From an uncultured Actinomycetes bacterium (GTDB lineage: Bacteria; Actinomycetota; Acidimicrobiia; Spongiisociales; DATADW01): a DNA stretch of 64,000 nt. This document shows, piece after piece, positions 1,260 through 45,880 of the stretch; the stretch's first letter is position 1; each line of letters starts with the position of its first letter. The notes beneath the pieces were generated by a model that searched no databases, was not told the origin of the DNA, and was given only the letters and a program-made list of their open reading frames with translations. The translations under genes were made by a program, and so were the position numbers. Location: positions 1,651 to 65,650 of the forward strand of contig CAVWWM010000002.1 in NCBI GenBank assembly GCA_963758695.1, read 5' to 3'.

Positions 1260-2570
1260 ATGCAAGTGAACACATCAGACGCCCGGGTGTCTATCGGAAT
1301 TGATGCTGCGGTGGTGGCAGCTCACCAGGTGGCGGTTCGGGGCGAGGTCCGTGAGGACTTCAAGATCCGGTCGACGTTGGCCGGGTTGGCCGAGCTGACG
1401 CAGCGTCTCGAGCCTTATGCGGGGGCGATGGTGGTGGCCGAACCAACGGCGGGGACCTGGCTTCCGTTGGCGCATGCCGTGGCCGATGCCGGCTGTGGTA
1501 TCGGGTTTGTGGCTAACCGCGATTCGGCCCGGCTCCGCAGGGCGATCGTGGGTGCCTCCAAGACGGATGTGATAGACGCCGACATGTTGGCCCACTGCGA
1601 AGAGGTCCTCGGGGTGGTTCTGGCGCAGGTGCCGCCTCCGGGTCAGATCGCCCTCCGCCGGGCGATGAGACGTCGTCACATTGCCACGGTCGACGCCCAC
1701 CGGGCGGAATGCAGGCTGTGGGCGGTGGCGGCGTGGGCGTTCCCTGACCTGTGGCGAGCCACCGGCGGTCACACCCTGGCTCAGCCGCTGCTGGGCAATT
1801 GGCCGCATCTGGAGAGTCTGAGCCGAGCAAGGAGATCCTCGATCAGCGAAGTGATCGCAGCTCACAGTCGCGACCACGACCCGCAACGGAGGGCGGAGCG
1901 GATCCGGGACGCGGCCGCCGGCTGGGCCCGGTTCTGGAAGGGTCGCCTCGACCTCGACGCCCTCGCCTGGGAGGTGACCGCCATGCTCGATGACATCGCC
2001 GCTGCTGACCAACGGCAGAAAGATGCCACAAGACAGGCGACCCGGCTGTGGAAGCACCATTGGCCTGATGACCCGTTGATCTCGATCCCGGGGATGGGGC
2101 CGATCTGCTCGGCGGCGATCCGGGGCTGGTGGGGAGACGCCGCCCAGTTCCCTACGGCCAAAGCGGCAGTGGCACACACCGGTCTCAACCCGTCGATGTG
2201 GTCCTCAGGTCTCACCGAGAGCCCTTCCCGGCGGATCACCAAGCAAGGACCGGCCGAACTACGCCTCGCCCTCTACCAGGCGGCCAATGTTGCCCGACGA
2301 CACGACCCCCAACTCGCCGAGCACTACCGACGGCTCATGGTGGAACGAGGCCACAACCACATCTCGGCCAACACCGCCACCGCCCGAAAACTCGCCTGCA
2401 GAGCCTGGGCGATCGCCACATCCGGGCGGACCTACCAACCACGCGACCTCAACGGCAATCCGATAAACCACAACCAAGCCACCGCGCTCGCCGTTGAACT
2501 CACCATCGACGACGAAATCCGAGCCCGACGGCGCGGTCAAACCCGACGAGGACGACTAAACACGATCTGA
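1260..2570 (+). CDS. IS110-family transposase/recombinase
   Basis: Intact 436-aa ORF. N-terminal IGIDAA...VVAEPTAGTW...DVIDADMLA (DEDD-type region). C-terminal PGMGPICSAAI...TGLNPSMWSSG...ITKQGPAELRLALYQAANVA, typical of the IS110 Transposase_20 domain. AAGGGAG-type RBS about 9 nt upstream of the ATG. Confidence 0.9.
   Translation: MQVNTSDARVSIGIDAAVVAAHQVAVRGEVREDFKIRSTLAGLAELTQRLEPYAGAMVVAEPTAGTWLPLAHAVADAGCGIGFVANRDSARLRRAIVGASKTDVIDADMLAHCEEVLGVVLAQVPPPGQIALRRAMRRRHIATVDAHRAECRLWAVAAWAFPDLWRATGGHTLAQPLLGNWPHLESLSRARRSSISEVIAAHSRDHDPQRRAERIRDAAAGWARFWKGRLDLDALAWEVTAMLDDIAAADQRQKDATRQATRLWKHHWPDDPLISIPGMGPICSAAIRGWWGDAAQFPTAKAAVAHTGLNPSMWSSGLTESPSRRITKQGPAELRLALYQAANVARRHDPQLAEHYRRLMVERGHNHISANTATARKLACRAWAIATSGRTYQPRDLNGNPINHNQATALAVELTIDDEIRARRRGQTRRGRLNTI
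1260..2570 (+). mobile_element. IS110-family insertion sequence (core only; true ends lie somewhere in 633-1259 and 2571-2775)
   Basis: The transposase gene sits in the gap between two convergent host genes. This family lacks classical inverted repeats, so the ends cannot be fixed from a single copy. Confidence 0.6.
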
Positions 2571-2775
2571 CCAGCCCTGACAACCAGCGCTCGACCATCA
2601 CCACCGCACCGCCGGCCAACCCGACGCGCCCACACACGGTGAACAACAACCCCTTGACACCCGTTAGGAAATCAGGTCAGGGCCATTGCTACCGGTACTC
2701 GTCGTAGTGGACGTTGCCGGCGACGCCGCGGGAAGCGCTTGAGAGCACCGTTCCGGGTCCATCCGATGACAGGCC

Positions 2776-3715
2776 TCAGCCTGTACCCGCCCAGTCCAGG
2801 ACACGCATCGCCCGCATCGTGTTCCATCGGCTGGGGAAGCCGTCGGGCCCTTCCATCTCGAAGTGCGTCGGACCCTGGTGCGTGTTCTCCAGCGGCCATC
2901 TGCCCTTGGCATCGCGCTTCCCCGCCACCAGCTCGACAGCCTCGGCGGACCGGTCGTCGAGGGCGGCGCCGGTCGACCGGAAGTAGTCCAGACCGCGGAG
3001 CACGTCGTAGTACCAGCGCGGTCGGAAAAGAGAACATGGTGAATCTCGGGTCGACGATCTGTCTGGTCGAACGTCCACGGAAAAGACCCCGCTCGAGGAG
3101 GTACTCCTCGCCCCGCAAGCGGGCGGCCGCCACCGGCTCGGACGATCCCCCGGCATGTTCCCACGCCAGCAGCCCCTCGAGCACACAGATCAGCGTGTGG
3201 AACGACGACACCGTCGCCCCATACTCGGCAAAACAGTTCCAGCCCCCATCGTCGAGTTGCTCGCTGAGCAGGCGGTCGACGATTCCGTCGACGGCCTCCC
3301 CGAAGTAGGCACCGTTCGCAAGTGCGATTCCATTGATACATGGCTCTGTCTCGCCGTCGAAGTAGAGGGCGTTGTTGGCGTCCCACCGCACGTTCGTGCC
3401 AACCAGCGAGATGGCTCGGCGTGCCTCGGCGGAGTCGGGGTCGACACCAAGATCACACAGCAGTTGGAGCGAGAAGTGGGTCGCCGTCCAGGCGTCGAAG
3501 AACGGTTTCGTGTCATCGGCCCAACCGGGCCGATAGGTTCCGCCGTCCCACCTGCCGTCATCCGCCTGCAGCGCGAGCAGCTCCGCACCCCACCCCTCCA
3601 CTGCGACCCGGTCACGCTCGGCCCCAACGACCTCGATTGGCTCGTTGGTCATGTCGCGGATCACGTGCCAGCGGATCGCCGGATCCGAGTCGAGAAGCCA
3701 GTCTGTAACGCTCAT
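2776..3715 (-). CDS. prenyltransferase/terpene-cyclase-like alpha-alpha toroid repeat protein, one frame change near 3028
   Basis: DGRWDGG and DDGGWNCF repeat motifs. After ...DPRFTMFSF the sensible sequence RPRWYYDVLRGLDYF...GKRDAKGRWPLEN...RWNTMRAMRVLDWAG continues in the frame of ORF 2776..3186. The shift lies in the run tcttttcc (minus strand). Confidence 0.6.
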
Positions 3716-3732
3716 CTAGTCAGATCACCTTC

Positions 3733-4758
3733 CTACCAGTACTCCTCATAGTGAACATTCCCTTTGACCCCTCGGCGGTCGATGGTGAAACCCATCTCGT
3801 GGAGGATCTGGCACATCCCCACCGTTTCGGGGAACGTTGGTTCGTCGCCCTCCCATTCGGCGAGCCCGATCATCGCCGGATTACCGCACAGGTAGACGTG
3901 GGTGGTGGTGGGGTCGAGGTCCGTCCCAAGAGCTACCGCTAGCGAGCCGTCGGCGGCAAGCTCCTGGAGATAGCGCTTGGGAGCGCCACCCGGGTCACGA
4001 GTTATGACCGGCAGGTAGTGGTAGTTGGGGTACCGCTGCTCCAATTGGTGGTGCTCCTCGATGTAGGCGAGGTCATCGGGGTACCGCACCGAGACCGCAC
4101 CGAGGATCGGCCCGTAGTGACCCTTGCGGAGCAGTTCCACCACCATGGCGTTGTGCGGCGCCTCGCCGGTCCCGGTGGAGAGGAAGAGAACGGGGGCGGA
4201 TGGGTCGTCAACCGCATCGAGCGTGTATCTCCCCGCCATCTTCGGTCCCAGGTAGACCCGGTCGCCGACTCGTTTCAGGGCGAGGCGGGGGGTGAGACCG
4301 GGGATGCGATCGCCCTCCGGCGCCACCAGGACGATGTACAGCTCGATCTCGTCCTCGTGGACCGGGTCCACCATGTACCCGCGGGTGTCGAACAACGGGC
4401 TAGAGATGGAGTAGGAGCGGCGGATCAGCTTCTCCCGGTTCGCCTCGGGGATAAGGTCGTCGACGTCGTCGATTCGCGGCTCCCATGCCCCCATCCCGAG
4501 AGTGCAGTACTGCCCCACCCGCCACGGCGCCTGGCCGCCGTCGGGACGCACCCTGAGCCGCCACAGCTCGTTGTGGGCGGTGTCGAAGTGGGTGATGGTG
4601 GCGTTGTAGTGCTGGGCCCGCAGGTCCTCGACCCTATGGGCGTCGATCTGGAAGCCGTGCTGGGGCCCGGCCAGGTCGGGGAGGGTGGGGAAGCACGCCT
4701 CCCGGATCGCCTCCCATGCCCGCCCCGACGGGACGAGGTGGTCCTGTGCCGGCTCCAC
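3733..4758 (-). CDS. ferredoxin-NADP+ reductase (plant-type FNR family)
   Basis: RSYSISS (FAD RxYS motif), LFLSTGTGEAP (NADPH GTGxAP motif) and the aromatic C-terminus ...VHYEEYW. GTG start. Confidence 0.85.
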   Translation of the reverse strand: MEPAQDHLVPSGRAWEAIREACFPTLPDLAGPQHGFQIDAHRVEDLRAQHYNATITHFDTAHNELWRLRVRPDGGQAPWRVGQYCTLGMGAWEPRIDDVDDLIPEANREKLIRRSYSISSPLFDTRGYMVDPVHEDEIELYIVLVAPEGDRIPGLTPRLALKRVGDRVYLGPKMAGRYTLDAVDDPSAPVLFLSTGTGEAPHNAMVVELLRKGHYGPILGAVSVRYPDDLAYIEEHHQLEQRYPNYHYLPVITRDPGGAPKRYLQELAADGSLAVALGTDLDPTTTHVYLCGNPAMIGLAEWEGDEPTFPETVGMCQILHEMGFTIDRRGVKGNVHYEEYW

Positions 4759-5495
4759 ACCGTGCTGTCCTCCAACACGAACAGACCTTCCGGAGCTTGC
4801 TCACCGGCTTCCAGTAGCCCCTCGAGTGACGGGTCGGAGGCGACGCCGAGAGCGAAGACGACGTGGTCGAACTGGAGGTCAGGGGTGCGGCGATCCTCGA
4901 ACACGGCCATCGGGTACCCGCCGACATCGTCTATGGCCGACGGCTCGGAACGCCAGAGGACGGTGACCATCTGCTGTCGCTCCAGGTCGGAGAGGGTGCG
5001 GCGGGTCAGCGATGAGAGATCGGCGAACTCCCCGGTGAAGCAGAGCACCACCCGGGCGTCCCCCTCCACCAGTTCGAAAGCCGCCGCCGCGGCCCGTTCT
5101 CCCGGACCGACCACCAGCACATCCAGGTCCCGGGTGGCCAACCCCAAGGCCCGGAAGTGGATTCGATCCTCGAGCGACACCGGGAGTTCGTATGCGGGTC
5201 GAAGGGGCGTCTCGGTGGTTCGCTCGGCAATGGCACACGCCGTCGCCTGGAAGGTGTCAGCCACCGACTCGACGAGGACCGATCCATCGGGACCTCGCCC
5301 AATGCGTCGCAGCGGTGATTGGTAGCGGACGGTCAGGCCGTAGCGGCCAACCGCGTCCAGGGGCCGGACAGCGTCGCTCCCCGCGAGCACCAACACCCTC
5401 GCCAGTCCGGCGTGCTCCGCCTCTACCGCTAGCGAGAGCGCCGCCGGCGTCCCCCCGGCGACGATCAGGTCATACGACGCCACCACGGAGTTCAC
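4425..5495 (-). CDS. FAD/NAD(P)-binding oxidoreductase; the domain-like part ends near 4760 and the rest is an out-of-frame read over the FNR gene
   Basis: Two Rossmann dinucleotide motifs (YDLIVAGGTPAALSLA and DVLVVGPGERAAAAA). GTG start at 5495 overlaps the ligD stop (GTGA). There is no stop codon until 4425, and the last ~110 codons are an Arg/Pro/Ser-rich tail. Confidence 0.55.
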   Translation of the reverse strand: MNSVVASYDLIVAGGTPAALSLAVEAEHAGLARVLVLAGSDAVRPLDAVGRYGLTVRYQSPLRRIGRGPDGSVLVESVADTFQATACAIAERTTETPLRPAYELPVSLEDRIHFRALGLATRDLDVLVVGPGERAAAAAFELVEGDARVVLCFTGEFADLSSLTRRTLSDLERQQMVTVLWRSEPSAIDDVGGYPMAVFEDRRTPDLQFDHVVFALGVASDPSLEGLLEAGEQAPEGLFVLEDSTVWSRHRTTSSRRGGHGRRSGRRASPPSPTWPGPSTASRSTPIGSRTCGPSTTTPPSPTSTPPTTSCGGSGCVPTAARRRGGWGSTALSGWGHGSRESTTSTTLSPRRTGRS

Positions 5496-6984
5496 CGACC
5501 CGGCGACGCCCCCACGGTGGCCAGGTCCTCGAACCGGCACTCGCGGGGATCCTTGTCGTCACGCAACCCCTTGAACGACGGAGCGCGCAGCCGCCCCGCA
5601 TCGGTCAGTTGGCGGTACTCGACCGTCGCCACCAACTCGGGCTCCACCCACCGGACCTGACGCACCTGGGGGACCGCCTTGCGCTCGACAGCGTCGAGCA
5701 CGGGTTCCTTCCGTTCGCGGGTTGCCAACTCGGACAACACCGCAGCGAGCGAATCGCGGTTGAACCCGGTGCCGACGTTGCCGACGTAATGGAGCCCCTC
5801 GCCTTCGTAGGCTCCGAGGACCAGCGATCCAATCGTCCCCGACCGGTTGCCGGCACCCGGTCGCCACCCGAGCACAACGACATCGGCGTCGAGCACCGTC
5901 TTGATCTTCACCCAGTCGGGCGAGCGGCGTCCCGGGTGATAGCGCGAATCGATGCGCTTCGCCATCACACCCTCCAAACCCTGCGCCTTCGCCGCGTCGT
6001 AGAGCGCTATCCCCGAGCCGGCAACGACCGGTGACACCTGGAGTGTGTTCGACGGAACGACGATCTCCCCAAGCAAGCTCTGTCTCTCGGTGAGAGGACG
6101 AGCGGTCAGGTCCTCCCCGTCGAGGTAGAGCAGGTCAAAGGCCATGTAGGTCACAGGAGCTGACCGGGACGCCCTCTCGACATCAGCCGGTCTGCGGAGG
6201 TGCATGCGGTGCTGCAGCGCCTGGAACGAAGGGATCCCGTTCTCCAACGCTATGACCTCACCGTCGAGCATGGCACTTGTCGCCACCAGCCGGTCGTAGA
6301 GTCCCGCCAGTTCGGGATAGGCGACGGTGACATCGTGGCGGTTGCGCGATACCAACCGGGTCTCGTGGGTGCAGGTCGCGATGGCGCGGATGCCGTCCCA
6401 CTTCGGCTCGAAGCTCCATCCCGGTCGTCGAAGGCGTCGTCACCGAGTGTGGCCAGCATCGGCTCCGGCTGCGGGAATGGCGCCGGCGGAGGACGGAGAT
6501 CCTCGGAGAGGATGGCGAGCCACTGCTCTTTTCCCTGCTCCGTGCCGGTTCGTATGAGGTGCCAGATGCCGCGCAGCCGCTCTCCCTCCAGCCGGAAAGT
6601 GAGTTTCCCCGGTTCGCGGTCGAGCATCTCGTAGTCGCCCCGGTCGAAGATCCGGACCTCCCCACCCCCGTATTCACCTTTCGGGATCGATCCGGAGAAG
6701 GTGCGGTACTCCCACGGGTGGTCCTCGACGTGGATGGCGAGGGTGCGTACGCCCGGGCGCAGTGGGAGGCCCTTGGGCACCGCCCAGCTCACCAAGACAG
6801 GGGTGTCGCCGTTGAGCATCTCCAGCCGGACGTCGTGGTGGAGCCGTGTCGCATAGTGCTGCTGGATGACGAAGTGGTTCCCAGGTTTCGCAACCGCCGG
6901 ATCGACATCCCCGGCGAAGGAACCGGGCGGCTCCGGTGTGCGCTCGAAGCTGCGCTTGCGGTCGTACTCGGAGGTCTTGGCCAT
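5492..6984 (-). CDS. ligD: LigD-type ATP-dependent DNA ligase, phosphoesterase + ligase domains, one frame change near 6418
   Basis: N-terminal 3'-phosphoesterase motifs FVIQQHYATRLHHDVRLE...WAVPKG (ORF 6250..6984). The ligase adenylation motif EPKWDGIR and the OB-fold part lie in the frame of ORF 5492..6355. Junction ...DDAFDDRD|WSFEPKWDGIRA needs a 1-nt shift. No polymerase domain. Confidence 0.85.
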
Positions 6985-7012
6985 CAGGCCCGTGCCCGCC
7001 CACTGTCACGGA

Positions 7013-7711
7013 TCACTTCGCCGCTGCCCGCGCCTTGGCCAATTGCTCCTTCTTCTGTTCGATCCGCCGCTGCGCCGAGTCGACGACCCGCTGGGCCTGG
7101 TCGGCGTGCCGGCGCGCCTCCTTGGCCTCCTTCTGGAGCGAAGACATCTCTCCCTCGAGTTGAGCCACCTCCTCGGTCAGGGCGGCGATCCGGGCGTCTG
7201 CCTTGCTGGGCCTGGGCGGTCGAGGCTCGGATGGCGGAGCGGCAGTCAATGCGACCTCGCCAAACCCCGAAAGCTCCAACTCGGCGGTGAGCCTGCCATC
7301 ACGCAGCGCCTCTTCGGCGGAGGGGTCGGAGGCGGTGGCGAGCAAGGTTCGGGCCATCCGTTCCCTGGTCGACTCGGCCGCGCCCAGCCCCGCCTCTTCG
7401 AGGAGCTCTGCGGCCCGGTCCACCAGCTTCCGCACCACACGAAGGCGCTCGTCCGAAGCCTTCCTCGTGTCGGCGACCGACGCCGCACCCCTGAGCGAGG
7501 CGTTCGCCTTCCCGAGGGCCTTGATCAGGATGGGAGCATGGCGAGCCAATTGGTCGAGGCCCCAAACCACGGTCGTCGGCTTGCGGAGCCCCGCCACCTC
7601 GGCGGCCTCGGTCTCGTTGCCACCGGCTCGCAGTTCCTTGGCGATCCTGTTGCGCGTGGCGACGAACTCGTCCAACGGGACGCCAAACAACTCCGCAAGG
7701 CGGTCGGTCAT
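7013..7711 (-). CDS. hypothetical protein with C-terminal coiled coil
   Basis: Likely ATG at 7711 (MTDRLAELFGVPLDEFVATRN...). The tail EEVAQLEGEMSSLQKEAKEARRHADQAQRVVDSAQRRIEQKKEQLAKA is heptad-like. No family recognised. Confidence 0.5.
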   Translation of the reverse strand: MTDRLAELFGVPLDEFVATRNRIAKELRAGGNETEAAEVAGLRKPTTVVWGLDQLARHAPILIKALGKANASLRGAASVADTRKASDERLRVVRKLVDRAAELLEEAGLGAAESTRERMARTLLATASDPSAEEALRDGRLTAELELSGFGEVALTAAPPSEPRPPRPSKADARIAALTEEVAQLEGEMSSLQKEAKEARRHADQAQRVVDSAQRRIEQKKEQLAKARAAAK

Positions 7712-7796
7712 CACCGACACGCTATCCGGCTCGCTGGCCCTAGTGGGCTGCGCGGTTCGGCGGTGGTCCCGGGCGTCCCGGTTAGCCTCGACCGAC

Positions 7797-9713
7797 GTGC
7801 CCAAAGCCACTGCCGATCCGGCTCCGCTCCAGCTGACCGACGACGACCTGTTCCTCTTCAACGAGGGGAACCATTTCCGCCTCTACGACAAGTTCGGCGC
7901 CCACCTCGGTGCTCGAAAGGGCGTGGATGGAGCCTTCTTCACCGTGTGGGCGCCGGACGCCGAATACGTGTCGGTGATCGGAGAGTTCAACGAATGGGAA
8001 CCGGGCGACAACCCGCTCGCCGTGAAGGGCGACTCCGGGATCTGGACGGGGTTCATCGCCGGGGTTGGCGAGGGGTCTACGTACAAGTACCACATTGCAT
8101 CGCGCCACCGTGGCTACCGGGTGGACAAGGCAGACCCGTTCGCCTTCGACAACGAAGTGCCGCCGGCAACGTCGTCTGTGGTGCGCGACCTGGCCTACCA
8201 GTGGGGCGACCAGAGTTGGATGACCGCCCGAGCCCGGCGGGACCTGCGGAGGGATCCGGTGGCGATCTACGAGGTCCATCTCGGCTCGTGGATGCGCGAT
8301 GTTGACAACCGCCCGTTGGGTTACCTCGAGGTTGCCGATCGCATGGTCGAGCATCTCGACAACCTTCATTTCACCCATGTCGAGTTCCTCCCCGTCATGG
8401 AGCACCCCTATGAGGGCTCCTGGGGGTACCAGTCGCTCGGCTACTTCGCACCGACGGCTCGGTTTGGGAGCCCTCAGGACTTCATGACTCTGGTCGACCG
8501 TCTCCACCAGGCCGGTTACGGGGTGATCTTCGACTGGGTGCCGTCGCACTTCGCGGTCGATCTTCACGGTCTCGTCTACTTCGACGGAACCCACCTCTAC
8601 GAGCACGCTGATCCCCGCCAGGGGTTTCACCCCGATTGGGGCACCTTCATCTTCAACTACGGGCGCAACGAAGTCCGGAGCTTCCTCATCTCGTCGGCGC
8701 TCTTCTGGTTGGACCGTTATCACATCGATGGGCTGCGGGTCGACGCCGTCGCCTCGATGCTCTACCTGGACTATTCGCGACCCGCCGGACAGTGGATCCC
8801 CAACCGCTACGGAGGCAACGAGAACCTGGAGTCGATCGAGTTCCTCCGCAAGCTCAACGAGGCGGTCTACGAGTCGTACCCGGGGGTGGAGACGTTCGCC
8901 GAGGAGTCAACCGCCTGGCCCGGGGTGTCGCGACCGACATATCTCGGAGGGCTCGGGTTCGGGTTCAAGTGGGACATGGGGTGGATGCACGACACGCTTG
9001 ATTACCTGAGTCGTGACCCGGTGTTCCGCAGCCATCACCACACCGAGCTCACCTTCCGCGGGCTGTATGCGTGGACCGAGAACTATTGCCTGCCGCTGAG
9101 TCACGACGAGGTGGTGCACGGCAAGCGCTCACTGCTGGAGAAGATGCCAGGCGATGACTGGCAGAAGTTCGCCAACCTGCGACTGCTCTTCGTGAGCCAG
9201 TTCGCTCAATCGGGCAAGAAGCTTCTCTTCATGGGTGCCGAGATCGGCCAGCGGCGCGAGTGGAACCATTCGATCGGGGTCGACTGGCACCTCCGCCAGT
9301 TCGCGGCGCACGCCGGTGTCGAGCGTCTCGTGGCGGACCTGTGCCGGGTCTATCGCGACGAGCCTGCACTGCACGTCCTCGACTGTGACGCCGCCGGCTT
9401 CGAGTGGATCGAGGCCAACGACTGGCAGGGCAGCACCCTCGCCTTCCTCCGCAAGGACGATGGTGACGAGATCGTGCTGGTCGTGCTCAACGCCACACCC
9501 GTGCCCCGGTACAACTACCGGGTCGGCGTCCCCAGGGACGGGACCTGGACCGAGATCCTCAACAGCGACGCCCTCATCTACGGCGGGAGCGGGCACGGCA
9601 ACCTCGGCGAGGTCGAAGCGGTCCCCAACGGGACGCATGGGCGACCCTTCTCGATCGGGCTCACGCTGCCCCCCCTTGCCGGGGTGATGCTGCGCAATCG
9701 CCCCGCTCCGTGA
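7797..9713 (+). CDS. glgB: 1,4-alpha-glucan branching enzyme (GH13)
   Basis: LFNEGNHFRLYDKFGAH, then GH13 regions DWVPSHF, GLRVDAVASMLY, FAEESTAWP and LSHDEVVHGK. In-frame GTG at 7797. The ORF upstream of it (7203-7796) is antisense to the neighbouring gene. Confidence 0.9.
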   Translation: MPKATADPAPLQLTDDDLFLFNEGNHFRLYDKFGAHLGARKGVDGAFFTVWAPDAEYVSVIGEFNEWEPGDNPLAVKGDSGIWTGFIAGVGEGSTYKYHIASRHRGYRVDKADPFAFDNEVPPATSSVVRDLAYQWGDQSWMTARARRDLRRDPVAIYEVHLGSWMRDVDNRPLGYLEVADRMVEHLDNLHFTHVEFLPVMEHPYEGSWGYQSLGYFAPTARFGSPQDFMTLVDRLHQAGYGVIFDWVPSHFAVDLHGLVYFDGTHLYEHADPRQGFHPDWGTFIFNYGRNEVRSFLISSALFWLDRYHIDGLRVDAVASMLYLDYSRPAGQWIPNRYGGNENLESIEFLRKLNEAVYESYPGVETFAEESTAWPGVSRPTYLGGLGFGFKWDMGWMHDTLDYLSRDPVFRSHHHTELTFRGLYAWTENYCLPLSHDEVVHGKRSLLEKMPGDDWQKFANLRLLFVSQFAQSGKKLLFMGAEIGQRREWNHSIGVDWHLRQFAAHAGVERLVADLCRVYRDEPALHVLDCDAAGFEWIEANDWQGSTLAFLRKDDGDEIVLVVLNATPVPRYNYRVGVPRDGTWTEILNSDALIYGGSGHGNLGEVEAVPNGTHGRPFSIGLTLPPLAGVMLRNRPAP

Positions 9714-19052: not shown

Positions 19053-19091
19053 CTTCACCCCACCGGTGCGGGGCTTCACCCCACCGGTGCC
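19053..19091. repeat. 22-bp tandem duplication (cttcaccccaccggtgc x2) at convergent gene ends
   Basis: Copies at 19053-19069 and 19075-19091. The second copy encodes the last codons and stop of the PhyH gene on the minus strand. Confidence 0.7.
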
Positions 19092-19894: not shown

Positions 19895-19976
19895 GCCGGG
19901 ATACCCAAGCGGCCAAAGGGAGCAGACTGTAAATCTGCCGGCTCAGCCTTCGGAGGTTCAAATCCTTCTCCCGGCA
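19895..19976 (+). tRNA. tRNA-Tyr (GTA), long variable arm, CCA not encoded
   Basis: Acceptor GCCGGGA/TCCCGGC, anticodon stem-loop GCAGA-CTGTAAA-TCTGC, T arm GGAGG-TTCAAAT-CCTTC. Confidence 0.85.
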
Positions 19977-20062
19977 CGACAAGCCAGAACGTCCGGAAAC
20001 TGCCGTTTACCAGGCAGTTTCGTGCCCGCGTTGCCTTTCTGTGGCTTTCGCCGTTCTGGTCG

Positions 20063-20620
20063 TCACGCCAGGTCCGGCTCGGCAACCTCACCGGCGTCGG
20101 CGGCTTGGGCATCGGCAGCATCGGCGGCCTCGGAACCGGCGAGGTACTTGATCAGGTCGTTCGAGTGGGTGATCGGCAGGCGATTGCCTTCCAACTCGAT
20201 CCTGGCTCCGGTCTCGGGCTGCACCAGCTCGAGCGTCCGTACGTTCACCCGACCGTGCACCTTGATCTCCAGCCCTCGGCGGGCGACCCGGAACAGGAGC
20301 TCGTCTGGCACGTCCTTCCTGCCCATTTTCGCCAATGGGAACCCGTAGATCGTCGATGCCGACGCACCGACGAGCATCTGGCTAGGCAGGCCGCTGGAAG
20401 CGGCGTTGGCCGCGATACCGGCGACTGCGCCGACGCCTAATCCGATCGCGTCGCCCACGTCGCCGAATGCGCCGCCGACCTCACTGCCGATCATGCCGCC
20501 CGCGAACAGCGCCCCACTCTGACCTCTCGGCTCGAACTGACCAACCTCCTCGATCCGGTCGTCGATCTCCATGCGATCGAGGGCGGTTTGGACTGCGGCG
20601 ATCATGTCTTTCTCGGCCAT
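20063..20620 (-). CDS. hypothetical protein (Gly-rich central segment), sole gene between tRNA-Tyr and its partial copy
   Basis: 185-aa intact ORF. It has a GGMIGSEVGGAFGDVGDAIGLGVGAVAGIAANAA segment followed by a beta-rich C-terminal half. No family recognised. Confidence 0.5.
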   Translation of the reverse strand: MAEKDMIAAVQTALDRMEIDDRIEEVGQFEPRGQSGALFAGGMIGSEVGGAFGDVGDAIGLGVGAVAGIAANAASSGLPSQMLVGASASTIYGFPLAKMGRKDVPDELLFRVARRGLEIKVHGRVNVRTLELVQPETGARIELEGNRLPITHSNDLIKYLAGSEAADAADAQAADAGEVAEPDLA

Positions 20621-20667
20621 GAACCGAACCTAGACGGCCCGCGGTGATGGGGTGACCGGCTGGCTGC

Positions 20668-20714
20668 AAAATCTGCCGGCTCAGCCTCCGAGGTTCAATT
20701 CCTTCTCCCGGCAC
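20668..20714 (+). repeat. degenerate copy of the 3' half of tRNA-Tyr (att-like direct repeat)
   Basis: aaatctgccggctcagcctccgaggttcaattccttctcccggcac matches 19931-19977 of the intact tRNA. The differences are 2 substitutions and a 1-nt deletion. No 5' half is present upstream. Confidence 0.8.
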
Positions 20715-20719
20715 TCCTT

Positions 20720-22279
20720 CTATGGTGGGCCTAGTCGGTCGAAGGCGCGTCCCAGCGTCTTTCGGTAGAGCGGGGCAACCGTGTCCACGAGTAGATAGCC
20801 GCAGAGGACGCCTACGGCGATTGCGATCATGGCGCCGACGGTGCTCAGGAAGTCCTCGAGTCCGGAAATCGGGTTGTCGGTGAGGTATTCGGTAACGCCG
20901 ATCACCCCGAGCGCTCCCGGCACGAGCAGCCAGAACCCGGGAAGAAACGAGACCAGCGCCGGGGGCCCGAAATGGGTGTTCTCCACGAGGCGCGCCACCG
21001 GTGTCATGGCTAGGGCCCCAAGGAAGCCGCCGACGAATCCACCGCCGAGCTGGTTTCCCACCTGTTGCCCGAGAAAGGCGACTAGGAGCACCAGAAACAG
21101 CCCTGGTAGGGACCTGCGGGGCGGCGAGTAGTAGGCCGCCACCCCGACCCCGAACACCATCGCACCGAGCCACGGCGCCCACCATCCGAAGGTGTTCTGA
21201 GGTATGTCGACAAGCCCTGCCGATGGCAGCCCCACTAGCTCGGCCGCAACAAGGATTCCTGCAGCAAGTAGGACCAGTTGCAGAGCTCCCGAGACAAGGC
21301 GACTAGCACCAGCTACCAGTTGCCCGGACGACAGCTCGATGACAGACATGGTTAGCGCGGCGCCGGGTAGGAACGTTACAAGTGGGGCAATCATCGCCCG
21401 GAGGTTCGCATTGCCCCAGCCTTCGTTGGCCAGCGCGAAAGTGAGGGCCGAAACGATGAATGCGGCGGCGATCGGCATGAGAGGTTGAGCCCGCGCCCAC
21501 CTGCCGCCCACCAGCTTGAGGACACCTACGAGGGCCCCGAAGAAGGCGGCCAGAGCAAGGTCCGCACCGGTCGGCTGCAATATGAGGCACAGCCCGACTG
21601 TCAACAACACGTGCCCAAATAGCGTCAGGGGCAGGGAATAGCGGGGACGGCTCGACATAGCCGCTTGGACCTCGTGGATACCCTCGGCGGGCTCGATCTC
21701 CGCTCGCCTGGCGCGCTTCAGGATGTCGTAGAGCTTTGAGGTTTGGTCGAGCCGGAGTGCCCCACGTGACTGGAAGGTCGGCTCCAGTGTGGCTGGTCGG
21801 TTTGGGTCGAGTGCGACGAAGATGAAGGTGGGGAGAACCGCGAACCTCGCCTCCGGAGCCCCGTAGGCCGATGCCACGACCCAGAGGTGATCCTCGATCT
21901 CGTTGACTGCCCCACCGGCGACTGTTAAACCGCTCCCAAGGTAGAGGAGGAACTGTTGCAGGGCCTCCTCGCGTGAGTGTGAATCGTCTGCAGGGGTTTG
22001 GTCGGGTGGGCTCGTTCCGTTTCCCACTTGGTCCGGTTCCCTTGTGGGGTCTTTCACGATGAGGACGGCGCGGCCGTCACGCACCACCCCATTGATCGTC
22101 GCCTCGTGAATCTGGGTGCAGATGTCGGTCCACCACGACTGGGCGGATGCTACCGAATGCGTTTGTGTGCCCAGCGCCGGGCGCGCCCTGCGGACAGGAG
22201 GCTTGACGCTTCCGAGATCGAGGAGACGATTCTCATAGGCGCTGCCACTCCAAGACCTCGCCGAAGTCACATCTTTCAC
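20720..22279 (-). CDS. ThrE-type threonine/serine exporter family membrane protein (start uncertain)
   Basis: Soluble N-terminal part, then about 10 hydrophobic segments. LGSGLTVAGGAVNEIEDHL and ...LLVPGALGVIGV motifs fit the DUF1212+DUF3815 architecture. Confidence 0.65.
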   Translation of the reverse strand: MKDVTSARSWSGSAYENRLLDLGSVKPPVRRARPALGTQTHSVASAQSWWTDICTQIHEATINGVVRDGRAVLIVKDPTREPDQVGNGTSPPDQTPADDSHSREEALQQFLLYLGSGLTVAGGAVNEIEDHLWVVASAYGAPEARFAVLPTFIFVALDPNRPATLEPTFQSRGALRLDQTSKLYDILKRARRAEIEPAEGIHEVQAAMSSRPRYSLPLTLFGHVLLTVGLCLILQPTGADLALAAFFGALVGVLKLVGGRWARAQPLMPIAAAFIVSALTFALANEGWGNANLRAMIAPLVTFLPGAALTMSVIELSSGQLVAGASRLVSGALQLVLLAAGILVAAELVGLPSAGLVDIPQNTFGWWAPWLGAMVFGVGVAAYYSPPRRSLPGLFLVLLVAFLGQQVGNQLGGGFVGGFLGALAMTPVARLVENTHFGPPALVSFLPGFWLLVPGALGVIGVTEYLTDNPISGLEDFLSTVGAMIAIAVGVLCGYLLVDTVAPLYRKTLGRAFDRLGPP

Positions 22280-22340: not shown

Positions 22341-25300
22341 ATGCAGGCGTTTCTATTCACAGATATCGAAACGAGCACGCGCCTCTGGGAGGAACACCCC
22401 GATCAGATGGCGGCGGCGCTTGCTCGACACGACTCGATCCTCCGGCACGCGATAGAGCGGTCCGGTGGCCGAGTGCTGAAGACCACCGGCGACGGCATGA
22501 TCGCAGTCTTCGACTCGGTGGTCGACGGCCTGGATGCCGCCGATCAGGCTCAGAAGTCTCTCGGCTCCGAGACCTGGGGGGCCACCGGGCCCCTGCGGGT
22601 GCGGATGGGGGTCCATGCCGGTGAGACGGACGACCGCGATGGTGACTACTTCGGGCCCGTGATGAACCGGACTGCCCGGATCATGGCCGCCGGTCACGGC
22701 GGACAGGTGTTGCTATCCGCCATCGCCGCCAGGATGGCCGAGGATCAGCTTCCCCCAGGGGCGCGATTGCGTGACCTGGGCGCACACCGTCTCAAGGACC
22801 TGACTCTTCCTGAGCACCTCTACCAACTGGTCCAAGACGGCCTCGGGTCCGAGTTCCCACCATTACTCACCCTCGAAGCAAGACCCCACAACTTCCCGCA
22901 GCAGACCACCGAATTCCTGGGACGAGCCGACGAACTGGCTGCGATCGAGGTGATGCTGGAGTCCAGGAGTACGAGGTTGTTGACCGTCGTCGGACCTGGA
23001 GGAGTGGGCAAGACACGTCTCGGGCTGCAGGTCGCCGCCGAGCAGATGGACCACTTTCGAGACGGAGTCTTCTTCGTCGACTTGTCGGCCGAGACTGATC
23101 CGGACAGCGCCTTCGAGGCGGTGGTAAGGGCGCTCAATCTTCCGCTTTCAGGAGGTGGCGAACCGCTCCAGATCCTGAAATCACGGCTCCGCGACAGCCA
23201 GATGCTCCTGGTTCTCGACAACTTCGAGCAGGTGACCGCAGCGGCTGCCGGCGTGTCCGAGCTGCTTCAGGCGGCGCCGGATCTCAAGATCATCGTGACG
23301 AGCCGGGAGACCCTACGGGTGAGGGCTGAGCACGTCTTCCCCGTCCCGCCGTTCGGCCTGCCCCATCCAACGGACCCGACATCTTCAATCGCCGAATCCG
23401 AAGCGGTCCAACTCTTCAGCGAGCGTGCCCGGGCGGTGCGTCCCGAATTCGTCATCACCGACGAGAACGCCACTGAGGTAGCCGAGATCTGTCTTCGACT
23501 CGATGGTCTGCCTCTGGCCATCGAGCTGGCTGCCGCCCGGCTCAACGTCTTCACGCCGTCCGACCTGCTCGACCGTCTGCGCGACCGGCTCGATGTTCTG
23601 GGAAGCGGGGGACGGGATCTCCCTGACAGGCAGCGCACCCTGTGGGCAGCGATCGGGTGGAGCTATGAGCTGCTCGACGACGGCGAGAGGTCCATTTTTG
23701 AACTGATGTCGGTGTTCACGACGGCGGATCTCCCGACTTTGGAGGCGGTGTCCGCCAACGCCTTTGGGGAAATTCCGCTCGTCGACTCGATCGCCTCGCT
23801 GGTGGACAAGAGCCTGGTTCGAGCGGTTGAGAGGGCGGGTTCGCAGCGCTTCTCCATGTTGCTCACGATCAGGGAGTACGCCGAAGCCCGGCTGGCCGAC
23901 AACCCCGAACAGAACGAGGCGGTGCGCCGGGCCCACGCCGTCCATTACTCCGAATTCGGCGCGCAGCTGCATGAGCGTCTCCGTGGCCCTGGACGCGAGG
24001 CTGCCCTCACCGACCTCGAATTGGAGATCGGCAACGTGAGGACCGCCTGGCGTTACTGGGTCGACCGAGCCGATCTGGAGCAGGTGTTCGAACTCGTCGA
24101 CGGGCTGTGGGCGCTCCACGAGGCCAAGGGTTGGTACCACGCCGCCATGGAGCTCGCCACCGATGCGCTCGAAGTGCTGGACAAGGTCGGTCACTCACCG
24201 GGGCTCGCCGCCCAGGAGTTGGCCCTGCGCACCAGTCTGGCCCGCGCCTCGATGGCGGTGCACGGATACGGCGTGGAGGTCGAGGAGGCCTTCAAGGCAG
24301 CCCTGGCGATGGCGCACACCGCGGGAACTGCTGCACAGCAGTTCCCGGTGCTCCGTGCCCTTGCCACCTACTACATGGGCGTGGCGAACTTCGAGCAAGG
24401 GGCCGTGTATGGGCAACGGCTGCTCGACATGGGGGAGCGCGAGGGTGACGACTCGATACGGATCGAAGGCCACTACGTCTACGGGGGAGCCAAGAGCTTC
24501 AGCGGTGATCTCGAAACAGGTCTGCCCCACCTCGAGCGTGTCATCGAGCTTCATGATCCTCGGGTCCATGGCTCGGCTCGCTTCCGGCTCGGGCCTAACA
24601 CAGGCGTTACGGCGCGGGTGGCATCGGGCCTCATTCTGTGGCAAAGCGGTGCTCTGGGGCGAAGTGTCGCCCGGCTCACCGAGGCGCTCGAGATTGCCCG
24701 GGACCTCGACCATCCCTACAGCGTGGCCTTTGCCCTCTATCACAATGGCCTGCTCGCCCTGTTTAGGAGCCGTTTCGACGAGTGTGGGCGAATCGCACGC
24801 GAGCTTGCCGCGGTGGCGGAGGACAACGACTACGTGGTGTGGAAGACACTCGCCACCGTCCTCGAGGGGGTGTCGTTGACCGCCCTCGGTGGGACCGAGC
24901 AGGGCCTGGCGATGACCGAAACCGCCATAGACCTCTACCAAGGGCTGACTACACCGCCGGTGTTCTGGCCGCAGCTTCTCTCGGTCAGAAGCCTGACACA
25001 CGCCTTGGCTGGTCGGCCCGAGCAGGCTCTTGTTTTGATAAATGACGCGTTGGAGATTGGGCAGCCTTATTCGACGGCTCCACCCGATTTCCTGGTGCTC
25101 AAGGGCGACTTCCTCCGCATGCTGACCCCACCGGACCTCGTCGGAGCCGAGGCGGCCTACGAGGCCGGTACCCAAGATGCCCGGACGGCGGGGCTTCACC
25201 TCATCGAACTGCAAGGGCTGACCCGTCTGGTCGGTCTCCGAAGGGAGCTGGGCCGATTCCCCGATGGCAGCGCCGAGCTCGCCGAGCTATATGCCAGTTT

Positions 25301-25400
25301 CACGGAGGGGCACGATGAGCACGACATCACCTTGGCTCGAGACCTATTGAATGTGGAGGGATCCCAATCAGCGCCACTCCCGGGCGCGGAGCTTCCCTGA
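22341..25400 (+). CDS. class III adenylate/guanylate cyclase domain fused to NB-ARC-type STAND ATPase and TPR repeats
   Basis: Intact 1019-aa ORF. Cyclase motifs FLFTDIETST, LKTTGDGMIAVF and GPVMNRTARI. P-loop VVGPGGVGKTRL, Walker B MLLVLDNFEQV, IIVTSRE, and a long TPR-like C-terminus. Confidence 0.85.
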   Translation: MQAFLFTDIETSTRLWEEHPDQMAAALARHDSILRHAIERSGGRVLKTTGDGMIAVFDSVVDGLDAADQAQKSLGSETWGATGPLRVRMGVHAGETDDRDGDYFGPVMNRTARIMAAGHGGQVLLSAIAARMAEDQLPPGARLRDLGAHRLKDLTLPEHLYQLVQDGLGSEFPPLLTLEARPHNFPQQTTEFLGRADELAAIEVMLESRSTRLLTVVGPGGVGKTRLGLQVAAEQMDHFRDGVFFVDLSAETDPDSAFEAVVRALNLPLSGGGEPLQILKSRLRDSQMLLVLDNFEQVTAAAAGVSELLQAAPDLKIIVTSRETLRVRAEHVFPVPPFGLPHPTDPTSSIAESEAVQLFSERARAVRPEFVITDENATEVAEICLRLDGLPLAIELAAARLNVFTPSDLLDRLRDRLDVLGSGGRDLPDRQRTLWAAIGWSYELLDDGERSIFELMSVFTTADLPTLEAVSANAFGEIPLVDSIASLVDKSLVRAVERAGSQRFSMLLTIREYAEARLADNPEQNEAVRRAHAVHYSEFGAQLHERLRGPGREAALTDLELEIGNVRTAWRYWVDRADLEQVFELVDGLWALHEAKGWYHAAMELATDALEVLDKVGHSPGLAAQELALRTSLARASMAVHGYGVEVEEAFKAALAMAHTAGTAAQQFPVLRALATYYMGVANFEQGAVYGQRLLDMGEREGDDSIRIEGHYVYGGAKSFSGDLETGLPHLERVIELHDPRVHGSARFRLGPNTGVTARVASGLILWQSGALGRSVARLTEALEIARDLDHPYSVAFALYHNGLLALFRSRFDECGRIARELAAVAEDNDYVVWKTLATVLEGVSLTALGGTEQGLAMTETAIDLYQGLTTPPVFWPQLLSVRSLTHALAGRPEQALVLINDALEIGQPYSTAPPDFLVLKGDFLRMLTPPDLVGAEAAYEAGTQDARTAGLHLIELQGLTRLVGLRRELGRFPDGSAELAELYASFTEGHDEHDITLARDLLNVEGSQSAPLPGAELP

Positions 25401-25511
25401 GTAACCGGTCGCACTCGAGGCAGCTGCAGGTGTCGCGCTCGAAGCGGCGTGGCACAATGTTTGCTGGCCTATCGCCCTCGCGCTGAAGGCCGGCAAGTCC
25501 AAGGAGATCCG

Positions 25512-45646: not shown

Positions 45647-45719
45647 GCCCCCTTAGCTCAGCTGGCAGAGCACCTCCATGGTAAGGAGGAGGTCTCCGGT
45701 TCGAATCCGGAAGGGGGCT
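45647..45719 (+). tRNA. tRNA-Thr (GGT)
   Basis: Acceptor GCCCCCT/AGGGGGC, D arm TAGCTCAGCTGGCAGAGCA, anticodon loop ATGGTAA, T arm CCGGTTCGAATCCGG. Confidence 0.9.
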
Positions 45720-45780
45720 CCGCCCGGCCGATCCCGACCGGGTTGACAAATGAAGACGGTGCGGCCACCGCACCAGGCGT

Positions 45781-45854
45781 GGCGGCGTAGCTCAGTCGGT
45801 GAGAGCGCTCGACTCATAATCGAGAGGTCGGCAGTTCGAGTCTGCCCGCCGCTA
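45781..45854 (+). tRNA. tRNA-Met (CAT), elongator type
   Basis: Acceptor GGCGGCG/CGCCGCT, anticodon stem-loop CTCGA-CTCATAA-TCGAG (no GGG/CCC initiator signature), T arm GGCAG-TTCGAGT-CTGCC. Confidence 0.85.
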
Positions 45855-45880
45855 CCGACGGGAACGAAGAAGGAGTTGTG

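Follow-up and report, generated by a model that had tools for sequence, protein, structure and literature searches.

A very small integrase-less module of a resident gene, flanked by att-like repeats, at tRNA-Tyr in an uncultured soil acidimicrobiian

In a 64,000-nt window of a metagenome-assembled genome (MAG) of an uncultured member of the Acidimicrobiia from soil, we found a single intact gene, here called g, enclosed between tRNA-Tyr and a displaced copy of the 3' part of this same tRNA. The enclosed segment is a very small module of a resident gene, flanked by repeats that resemble attachment (att) sites and devoid of an integrase; the genus bears several such modules at its tRNA-Tyr. By a slight balance of probability, we read it as a non-autonomous, att-flanked single-gene module similar to a cis-mobilizable element (CIME), which integrase-type recombination supplied in trans would have placed within an array of modules at tRNA-Tyr. 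The strongest argument for this reading is that two unrelated inserts have the same duplication boundaries, from base C32 to the last base of the tRNA. The window, meaning the whole stretch analysed, is positions 1651-65650 of contig C2 of assembly G000 (2.8 Mb in 32 contigs; 72% complete, 2.2% contamination), and it was compared with five other species of the genus (G001 to G005) and with contigs from metagenome assemblies (L044, L045, L057, L070 and L071).

The insert and its gene

The tRNA-Tyr of the window is the sole one in the G000 assembly, and its sequence is 100% identical in four further species of the genus (BLAST). Positions 37-83 of the tRNA (19931-19977) recur at 20669-20714 with two substitutions and a 1-nt deletion (repeat search, MAFFT), and the alignment of the pair falls into two gap-free blocks, one of 22 nt at 95% and one of 28 nt at 93%. 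By eye, the similarity sets in at the first base of the anticodon loop, C32, which corresponds to 20664 (CTGcAAAaTCTG versus CTGTAAATCTG), and the loop of the copy, O', differs from that of tRNA-Tyr by T35->C and one additional A. A BLAST search with the tRNA against the whole 2.8-Mb assembly recovered the partial copy at E = 4.3e-13 and no further copy of tRNA-Tyr. A degenerate 5' half beside the partial copies, as expected from duplication of the whole tRNA, was considered and rejected, with p 0.67 in G000, where the 35 nt preceding the copy were aligned to tRNA positions 1-36, p 0.13 in G005, and no match to the tRNA model. A first-pass annotation, made from the letters alone, had described the repeated 3' half with its three changes, a second copy lacking the 5' half, and one intact 185-aa open reading frame (ORF) enclosed without an integrase; ARAGORN, Rfam, MAFFT and BLAST confirm the repeat, the p value of 0.67 and the tRNA model agree on the missing half, and the ORF list and the lack of a tyrosine recombinase on C2 bear out the rest.

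From left to right the insert consists of the block O, the spacer, g and a 35-nt upstream stub, with 72 + 35 nt of non-genic DNA (Table 1). Within the spacer, a 9-bp hairpin at 19996-20021 lies between the convergent tRNA-Tyr and g. The block made of g and its immediate margins is the only part common to all contexts in the genus, at ~93% identity. The stub may be a remnant of the native region upstream of g, to which it aligns in relatives with p 0.006-0.17 (register-constrained alignment). The idea that the 584-bp block carries terminal inverted repeats was rejected, since an 8-9 nt match in G000 is not kept in other genomes, and inspection of the cassette ends across genomes revealed no conserved inverted-repeat structure.

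Table 1. Features of the tRNA-Tyr locus in the window.
Feature	Position	Strand	Evidence or remark
tRNA-Tyr (GTA), intact	19895-19977	+	ARAGORN; Rfam tRNA model, 55.5 bits at 19895-19976
att-like identity block O, anticodon loop to 3' end of tRNA-Tyr	19926-19977	+	
Spacer s, 72 nt, left arm of the insert	19978-20049		sequence
Conserved block, ORF g plus 13 nt on each side	20050-20633	-	BLAST against eight loci
Gene g, intact 185-aa ORF, conserved hypothetical protein	20063-20620	-	ORF list
Stub r35, 35 nt, right arm of the insert, joined to the tRNA copy	20634-20668		upstream-region alignment
Displaced partial tRNA-Tyr copy O' (attR-like), anticodon loop to 3' end	20664-20714	+	
ThrE-family exporter gene	20720-22279	-	Pfam ThrE, 8.3e-42; stop codon 5 nt from the end of the copy
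Cyclase-NB-ARC STAND gene	22341-25400	+	Pfam, synteny
Alternative g site, vacant in the window	25401-25450		occupied by g in G005, G004:C15, L044 and L045
tRNA-Thr and tRNA-Met	45647-45856	+	

Gene g is a lineage-wide resident gene and not foreign island cargo, because it is conserved across the class, has the local G+C and stands in varied contexts without a tRNA. Its protein has 277 homologues (E <= 1e-3), all of them unnamed and without Pfam domains, the close ones coming from Acidimicrobiia and soil metagenomes. The gene occurs in most of the genus and widely across the class Acidimicrobiia, and in distant genera it is found in unrelated surroundings, for example between proB and proA in L039. 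Its G+C of 0.661 is close to the mean of the window, 0.656, and its G+C at third codon positions (GC3) is 0.81, like that of its neighbours. Furthermore, the family has 37 invariant columns over 34 diverse members.

The first-pass annotation had suggested profile searches and structure prediction for the 185-aa protein. The Pfam and NCBIfam profiles gave no match to it, and structure prediction gave a PH/PTB-like fold. This fold is a seven-stranded beta sandwich with a C-terminal helix cap. The AlphaFold2 model (predicted local distance difference test, pLDDT, 75.6; predicted template modelling score, pTM, 0.73) has an N-terminal helix, a beta sandwich (strands in 23-35 and 82-146) interrupted by a disordered Gly-rich loop at residues 42-75, and helices from residue 153. 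Nearly all of the top 50 Foldseek matches in the PDB are PH, PTB or FERM-F3-type domains, the matches being weak (best E 7.5e-3, TM-scores 0.3-0.58). Upstream of g, the hexamer TAGGTT at -12 to -7 relative to the ATG is possibly the -10 box of a leaderless mRNA; a scan for consensus promoters and terminators found nothing. Within the genus, the ratio of nonsynonymous to synonymous divergence (dN/dS) of g is 0.24-1.1 at very low dS, despite the columns that are invariant across the family, a pattern which suggests recent allele exchange or sweeps across species.

The tRNA-Tyr site in related genomes

The neighbours of the locus encode an M48 peptidase, a PhyH-family dioxygenase, a ThrE-family exporter and a cyclase-NB-ARC STAND protein (Pfam). 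In six related assemblies the flank that stands behind the copy here adjoins the intact tRNA. In G003, G004:C8, G005, L044 and L045 the tRNA ends in GGCAC, and the next letters, (T)CCTT(T)CTATGGTGGGCC, already belong to the 3' end of the ThrE gene; in the window this type of flank comes after the partial copy and not after the intact tRNA. From these empty-site junctions it follows that the window has a precise, repeat-bounded extra segment of 737-738 bp, and an unoccupied tRNA-Tyr, which the first-pass annotation had proposed to look for, is thus present in relatives. The contig G004:C8 is also the nearest relative of the window by its flanks, with a synonymous divergence (dS) of 0.11 for PhyH and 0.15 for ThrE, and the junction between the cyclase gene and the next gene is common to both.

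The position of g varies across the genus. The order tRNA / spacer / g / 35 nt / copy / ThrE / cyclase occurs in the window only. In G005, G004:C15, L044 and L045, and on the right flank in G001, the order is tRNA / ThrE / cyclase / g / next genes, and G003 and G004:C8 have tRNA / ThrE / cyclase / next genes, without g. In G002, L057 and L071 we found tRNA / spacer / g / other genes, without the copy, and in L070 tRNA / 6.4-kb operon / copy / spacer / g. In relatives, g thus stands either ~4.7 kb away, past the cyclase-STAND gene, or immediately behind the tRNA with no repeat present. In the arrangement with g behind the cyclase gene, the difference from the window maps to about 25406-25408, and in L044 this g site is flanked by imperfect direct repeats of ~15 nt (type CGGTC.CCCTTCGG). 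The sequence on the right of g in this arrangement suggested, by eye, a decayed copy of the tRNA, which was rejected, unconstrained alignments giving p 0.19-0.78.

A second insert at the same tRNA base was found in L070 (Joint Genome Institute contig Ga0683585_0000309, locus 1394-7908). Here, a five-gene operon of 6.4 kb lies between tRNA-Tyr and the copy, encoding a GerE-type response regulator, a HisKA_3 kinase, an ABC permease, an ABC ATPase and a class-C-type serine hydrolase. Over its 52 nt the copy matches tRNA positions 32-83 perfectly, starting from C32, and it is followed by the same spacer and g. This module has no integrase and no space for a recombinase. L072, L073 and L074 carry the same five genes (87-89% nucleotide identity) at an ordinary chromosomal locus away from any tRNA, which in L072 and L073 adjoins an Rce1-like gene, and G000 carries only paralogues with 30-60% identity. 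The operon is therefore a second block of ordinary genes at the same tRNA base, recent enough for its repeats to be perfect. Together with g and with the ThrE and cyclase-STAND genes, which form the second module of the array in the window, this makes at least three integrase-less blocks at tRNA-Tyr in the genus, all three types built from ordinary chromosomal genes.

G005 holds a permuted version of the junction. Its tRNA, ThrE and cyclase genes are followed, after ~97 nt, by a 22-nt fragment of tRNA-Tyr, O'' (21/22 over positions 38-59), which is fused to g on the side of its stop codon. The order is a mirror of that in the window, tRNA / s-g / O' / ThrE-cyclase in G000 versus tRNA / ThrE-cyclase / O'' / g in G005. 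The 14 nt preceding the G005 fragment match the 14 nt preceding the window copy (p 0.0075, register fixed), T35->C is common to O' and O'', and the 33 nt before the G005 fragment resemble the first 35 nt upstream of g in L045, L070 and L071 (p 0.002-0.01). The junction between stub and tRNA fragment thus stands after g in the window and before g in G005, and since it is kept while the side of g is switched, these short alignments point to a circular or tandem form as an intermediate between the two.

These two assemblies also bear on the possibility that the structure is an artefact, in which a chimeric bin or mis-joined reads of two strains simulate an insertion. We hold this to be very improbable. 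The genome is a MAG with the completeness and contamination given above, the G004 bin has two versions of the locus on separate contigs, and public short-read data are too sparse to confirm the junctions or to reveal excision: in four soil runs, the sparse Logan unitigs gave no contig across either junction and no joints. However, a read path that was collapsed or duplicated would not give the three changes in the copy and its unique left flank, structures of this kind also occur in the independent assemblies L070 and G005 from other samples, and in our judgement a 47-nt repeat 738 bp apart would be an atypical cause of mis-assembly. As to the G004 bin itself, its two versions of the region from tRNA-Tyr to tRNA-Thr are C8:3926-27927, without g, and C15:1-22769, with g after the cyclase gene; C15 is near-identical to contig L045 (dS 0.007 for g), and the bin probably mixes two populations.

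The divergence of g differs from that of its surroundings. Its dS is 0.06-0.15 in every genome pair, whatever the divergence of the flanks, whereas the dS of PhyH against G002 reaches 0.62-0.66 (0.62 for G000 versus G002) and that of the cyclase gene against L057 is 0.37-0.44. In the closest pair, G005 and L044, g is no less diverged than its flanks. Codon constraint as the reason for the low dS was rejected, because the GC3 of g is like that of its neighbours and the differences are evenly spread along the gene. The intergenic DNA left of tRNA-Tyr has 63-67% identity between G000 and G002 or L057. The spacer to the right of the tRNA has 82-87% identity to those of G002 and L057 and 93% to that of L070 (manual count), and it is common to G000, G002, L057, L070 and L071 at 82-93%. 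Given the lower dS and the higher spacer identity, spacer and g share a more recent cross-species ancestor than their surroundings.

The start of the spacer could potentially indicate the direction of the event. Positions 19968-19990, comprising the last 10 nt of the tRNA and the first 13 nt of the spacer, match 20914-20936 inside the ThrE gene at 21/23 positions. No such match arose in 100 shuffles of the window, and the segment within ThrE is coding and conserved in every genome. The start of the spacer therefore looks like a leftover of ThrE, and the match suggests that a deletion once ran from the tRNA end into ThrE via the 10-nt repeat. If so, the tRNA/ThrE junction would be the older one and the tRNA/spacer junction derived, and together with the empty sites this speaks for entry of the g module into a tRNA/ThrE chromosome in this lineage.

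We also considered the opposite polarity, in which tRNA/s/g is original and the newcomer is the ThrE-cyclase block, placed 35 nt upstream of g with a tRNA 3' part of its own. The tRNA/s/g order without a repeat occurs in three lineages (G002, L057 and L071), including the most divergent, and in G005 and L070 blocks lie between the tRNA and O-s-g, as if s-g were the original downstream flank; moreover, the whole 25.7 kb past the tRNA is secondary in the genus. On the other hand, the O'/ThrE and cyclase/Z junctions of G000 match those of the empty-type G004:C8, so that coincident breakpoints would be needed, and the flanks of G000 are closest to this same contig. In addition, the apparently ThrE-derived start of the spacer would make tRNA/ThrE predate tRNA/s, and in G000 the divergence of s and g from other lineages is far below that of the left flank. 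On this evidence, we regard arrival of the ThrE-cyclase block as improbable.

Integrase in trans or homologous exchange

When an element integrates into a tRNA gene, its own copy makes the tRNA whole again, and the former 3' part comes to lie apart, next to the original flank; of the 3919 islands in the Islander collection, 3760 show a 3' fragment and 2083 an anticodon-centred attP (PMC4383910). As the displaced fragment runs from the anticodon loop to the end of the gene, the anatomy of the window is that of the commonest tRNA att class. By the integrase-type reading that we favour, the g module would have entered tRNA-Tyr on a chromosome that had ThrE immediately behind the tRNA, through recombination of the tyrosine-integrase type with a crossover in the anticodon loop. 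The 3' part borne by the module would now complete the functional tRNA-Tyr, and the resident 3' part would have been shifted 738 bp downstream, where its decay has presumably begun. The module encodes no recombinase, so the enzyme would have had to act in trans, or later spread would have relied on the tRNA sequences as homology arms.

Several observations weigh against this reading. No integrase was found within the insert or on the 66-kb contig C2: matches to PF00589 in G000 fall on contigs C1, C9, C28 and C31 and none on C2, and of the two non-Xer recombinases in G000, at C9:2301-2783 beside tRNA-Met and at C31:820-1266, nothing links either to tRNA-Tyr. An att-bearing element was likewise missing: a search of seven genomes, six from the genus and one from the family, gave only the tRNA, O' and O''. 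An exact 29-mer of the tRNA 3' part had 0 matches in viral contigs, and among 151 genomes of the order O' is the lone 3'-half copy at E <= 1e-4. Besides, similarity of the right-hand flank between contexts is weak (the p 0.006-0.17 of the stub), and for blocks of ordinary genes with almost no additional DNA to carry a full tRNA 3' part, each block would need to have once directly followed a tRNA-Tyr and to have been excised with it. Trees of g, PhyH, ThrE and the cyclase gene are star-like or mutually discordant and yield no single order of events, and the copies might be kept alike through gene conversion with the tRNA, which weakens any dating.

Some of these observations also speak for a rival without any dedicated recombinase, which we find rather unlikely. 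In this rival, DNA of a tRNA/s/g strain reached a tRNA/ThrE strain, recombined through PhyH and tRNA homology on the left and was closed on the right by an illegitimate join at microhomology, or, in a variant, an end-joined circle entered the tRNA through one crossover; the 47-nt repeats would then give rise to tandem and permuted forms by unequal crossing-over, and the tRNA sequences would serve as homology arms for further spread. An integrase or att-bearing element was found nowhere that was searched, and the modules are ordinary chromosomal DNA. The discordant trees and the flat dS of g speak of much homologous exchange at the locus, a CTG(C/T) microhomology lies at the join of stub and O', and deletions at short repeats of the CTTCG type are frequent at the locus. 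Nevertheless, the duplications around g in G000 and around the operon in L070 both run from the same loop base to the final base of the tRNA, and a rough estimate puts the chance of two breakpoints within a 7-nt loop out of at least 83 positions at <1%. Moreover, an illegitimate join in the sole tRNA-Tyr gives no reason to retain a complete 3' part.

An extension of the integrase-type reading takes tRNA-Tyr to be a capture platform, at which a recombinase encoded elsewhere, or on an element not seen here, shuffles integrase-less modules at the anticodon loop. The modules would range from a 0.7-kb gene to a 6-kb operon, the tRNA would be regenerated in each event, and the genus-specific block of 21-41 kb behind tRNA-Tyr would be the product. 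We consider this extension unlikely.

The first-pass annotation had called the repeats an attL/attR scar of integration, enclosing either a decayed island remnant or a minimal cassette. The anatomy and the empty sites are in favour of the scar. For the decayed remnant we found no support: g is a resident gene with its 277 homologues and local G+C, lies a few kb away in most relatives, and is accompanied by no trace of an integrase or an element backbone. Furthermore, because the L070 module has perfect repeats and yet no integrase, loss of the integrase by decay is a poor explanation. The minimal cassette is nearer the mark, with the amendment that it is one module of a shuffled array and not an isolated oddity.

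Surroundings and known systems

In all nine other genera of the order that were examined, tRNA-Tyr is followed by tRNA-Thr, tRNA-Met and tuf within 18-170 nt. In the genus, tRNA-Tyr and tRNA-Thr are 21-41 kb apart, and 25.7 kb apart here (19978-45646), so that the 3' side of tRNA-Tyr is the entry point of this genus-specific block. The g, ThrE-cyclase and operon modules form its tRNA-proximal end, which is still variable. The interval 19978-45646 contains, among others, ThrE, cyclase-STAND, SLH-anchored enzymes, a sugar-uptake operon and cupredoxins, and no integrase was found within it. An old attR at the far end of the 25.7-kb block was looked for and rejected, nothing significant standing before tRNA-Thr (Rfam; local alignment p 0.18-0.49). 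In the order, tRNA-Tyr often lies 300-500 nt from a contig end, and tuf follows tRNA-Met there; we rejected the idea that the contig breaks ~400 nt past tRNA-Tyr in many genomes of the order mark a variable hotspot, as the breaks lie inside the conserved tuf.

Both sides of tRNA-Tyr are prone to rearrangement in the genus. In G003 (C1 around 108880-109980; L032) the PhyH gene is missing between the M48 peptidase gene and tRNA-Tyr, and the genes beyond the cyclase gene have a different order. In the window, a perfect 17-nt direct repeat (CTTCACCCCACCGGTGC) with 21-nt spacing lies at 19053-19090 between the M48 peptidase and PhyH genes. Elsewhere in the assembly, at C9:2301-2998, a gene for a non-Xer tyrosine recombinase stands directly beside a tRNA-Met gene at the contig start, and this locus is a candidate for a conventional tRNA-linked island.

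The locus indicates that clean insertions of the att type can consist of just one resident gene or one resident operon. Gene g moved between sites a few kb apart in the genus and spread across species faster than its surroundings. If a recombinase acting in trans is responsible, a class of shuffling at tRNA genes has been missed in uncultured soil Actinomycetota; if tRNA-Tyr is a capture platform, it would be an integron-like system of gene shuffling on a tRNA att site; and if no recombinase took part, the locus would be a natural example of tRNA sequences used as portable homology arms. At the same time, a widespread and uncharacterised family with a predicted PH-like fold is defined, whose exchange pattern suggests unusual selection.

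Homology-facilitated illegitimate recombination in natural transformation, reportedly described by de Vries and Wackernagel in 2002, has in common with the locus one conserved anchor (the tRNA or PhyH) and a microhomology join at the opposite end. However, it predicts neither a shared boundary in the anticodon loop nor duplication of the full tRNA 3' part. Integron cassettes are likewise compact single-gene units with almost no flanking DNA and varied positions in arrays, and they depend on a recombinase encoded elsewhere, which is an analogy only. Here there is no IntI, attI or recognisable attC, contig C2 has no recombinase, the recombining sequence would be the tRNA 3' part, and g apparently keeps a -10 element of its own.

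The classes of att sublocation within tRNA genes are said to go back to Williams in 2002. In the manner of the islands collected by Islander, the locus has an intact, regenerated tRNA and a direct displaced 3' fragment on the same replicon (both on the + strand), with the fragment starting in the anticodon loop (class A), which besides the junction of T-loop and acceptor is a canonical crossover sublocation, and the site is unoccupied in relatives. It differs in that the interval lacks the tyrosine integrase gene, of neither Xer nor integron type, that Islander asks for, in that g shows neither atypical composition nor patchy distribution and is thus not foreign cargo, and in being very short at 738 bp. 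Islander-type pipelines recognise tRNA islands by their integrase and discard intervals without one (PMC4383910), and the insert fails this filter.

With the CIMEs the insert shows both likeness and difference. ICESt1 and its CIME relatives in Streptococcus thermophilus target the 3' end of a protein-coding gene, and here the target is a tRNA gene in an uncultured member of the Acidimicrobiia. The insert is far smaller, at 0.74 kb and one gene, and shows no sign of decay from an integrative and conjugative or integrative and mobilizable element, having no backbone remnants, native composition, a resident gene, and a spacer whose start resembles ThrE rather than element DNA; no partner element with a cognate integrase was found in the seven genomes searched or in viral contigs. 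The definition of a CIME and the model of tandem accretion at att sites are given in a review (PMC5704250, citing Pavlovic et al. 2004), in a passage that names tRNA-Lys as its sole target. In accordance with that definition, the insert retains attL-like and attR-like repeats at the 3' end of its target gene, lacks integration and transfer genes, and lies in tandem with another att-bounded block, in an array whose module order and content vary between strains.

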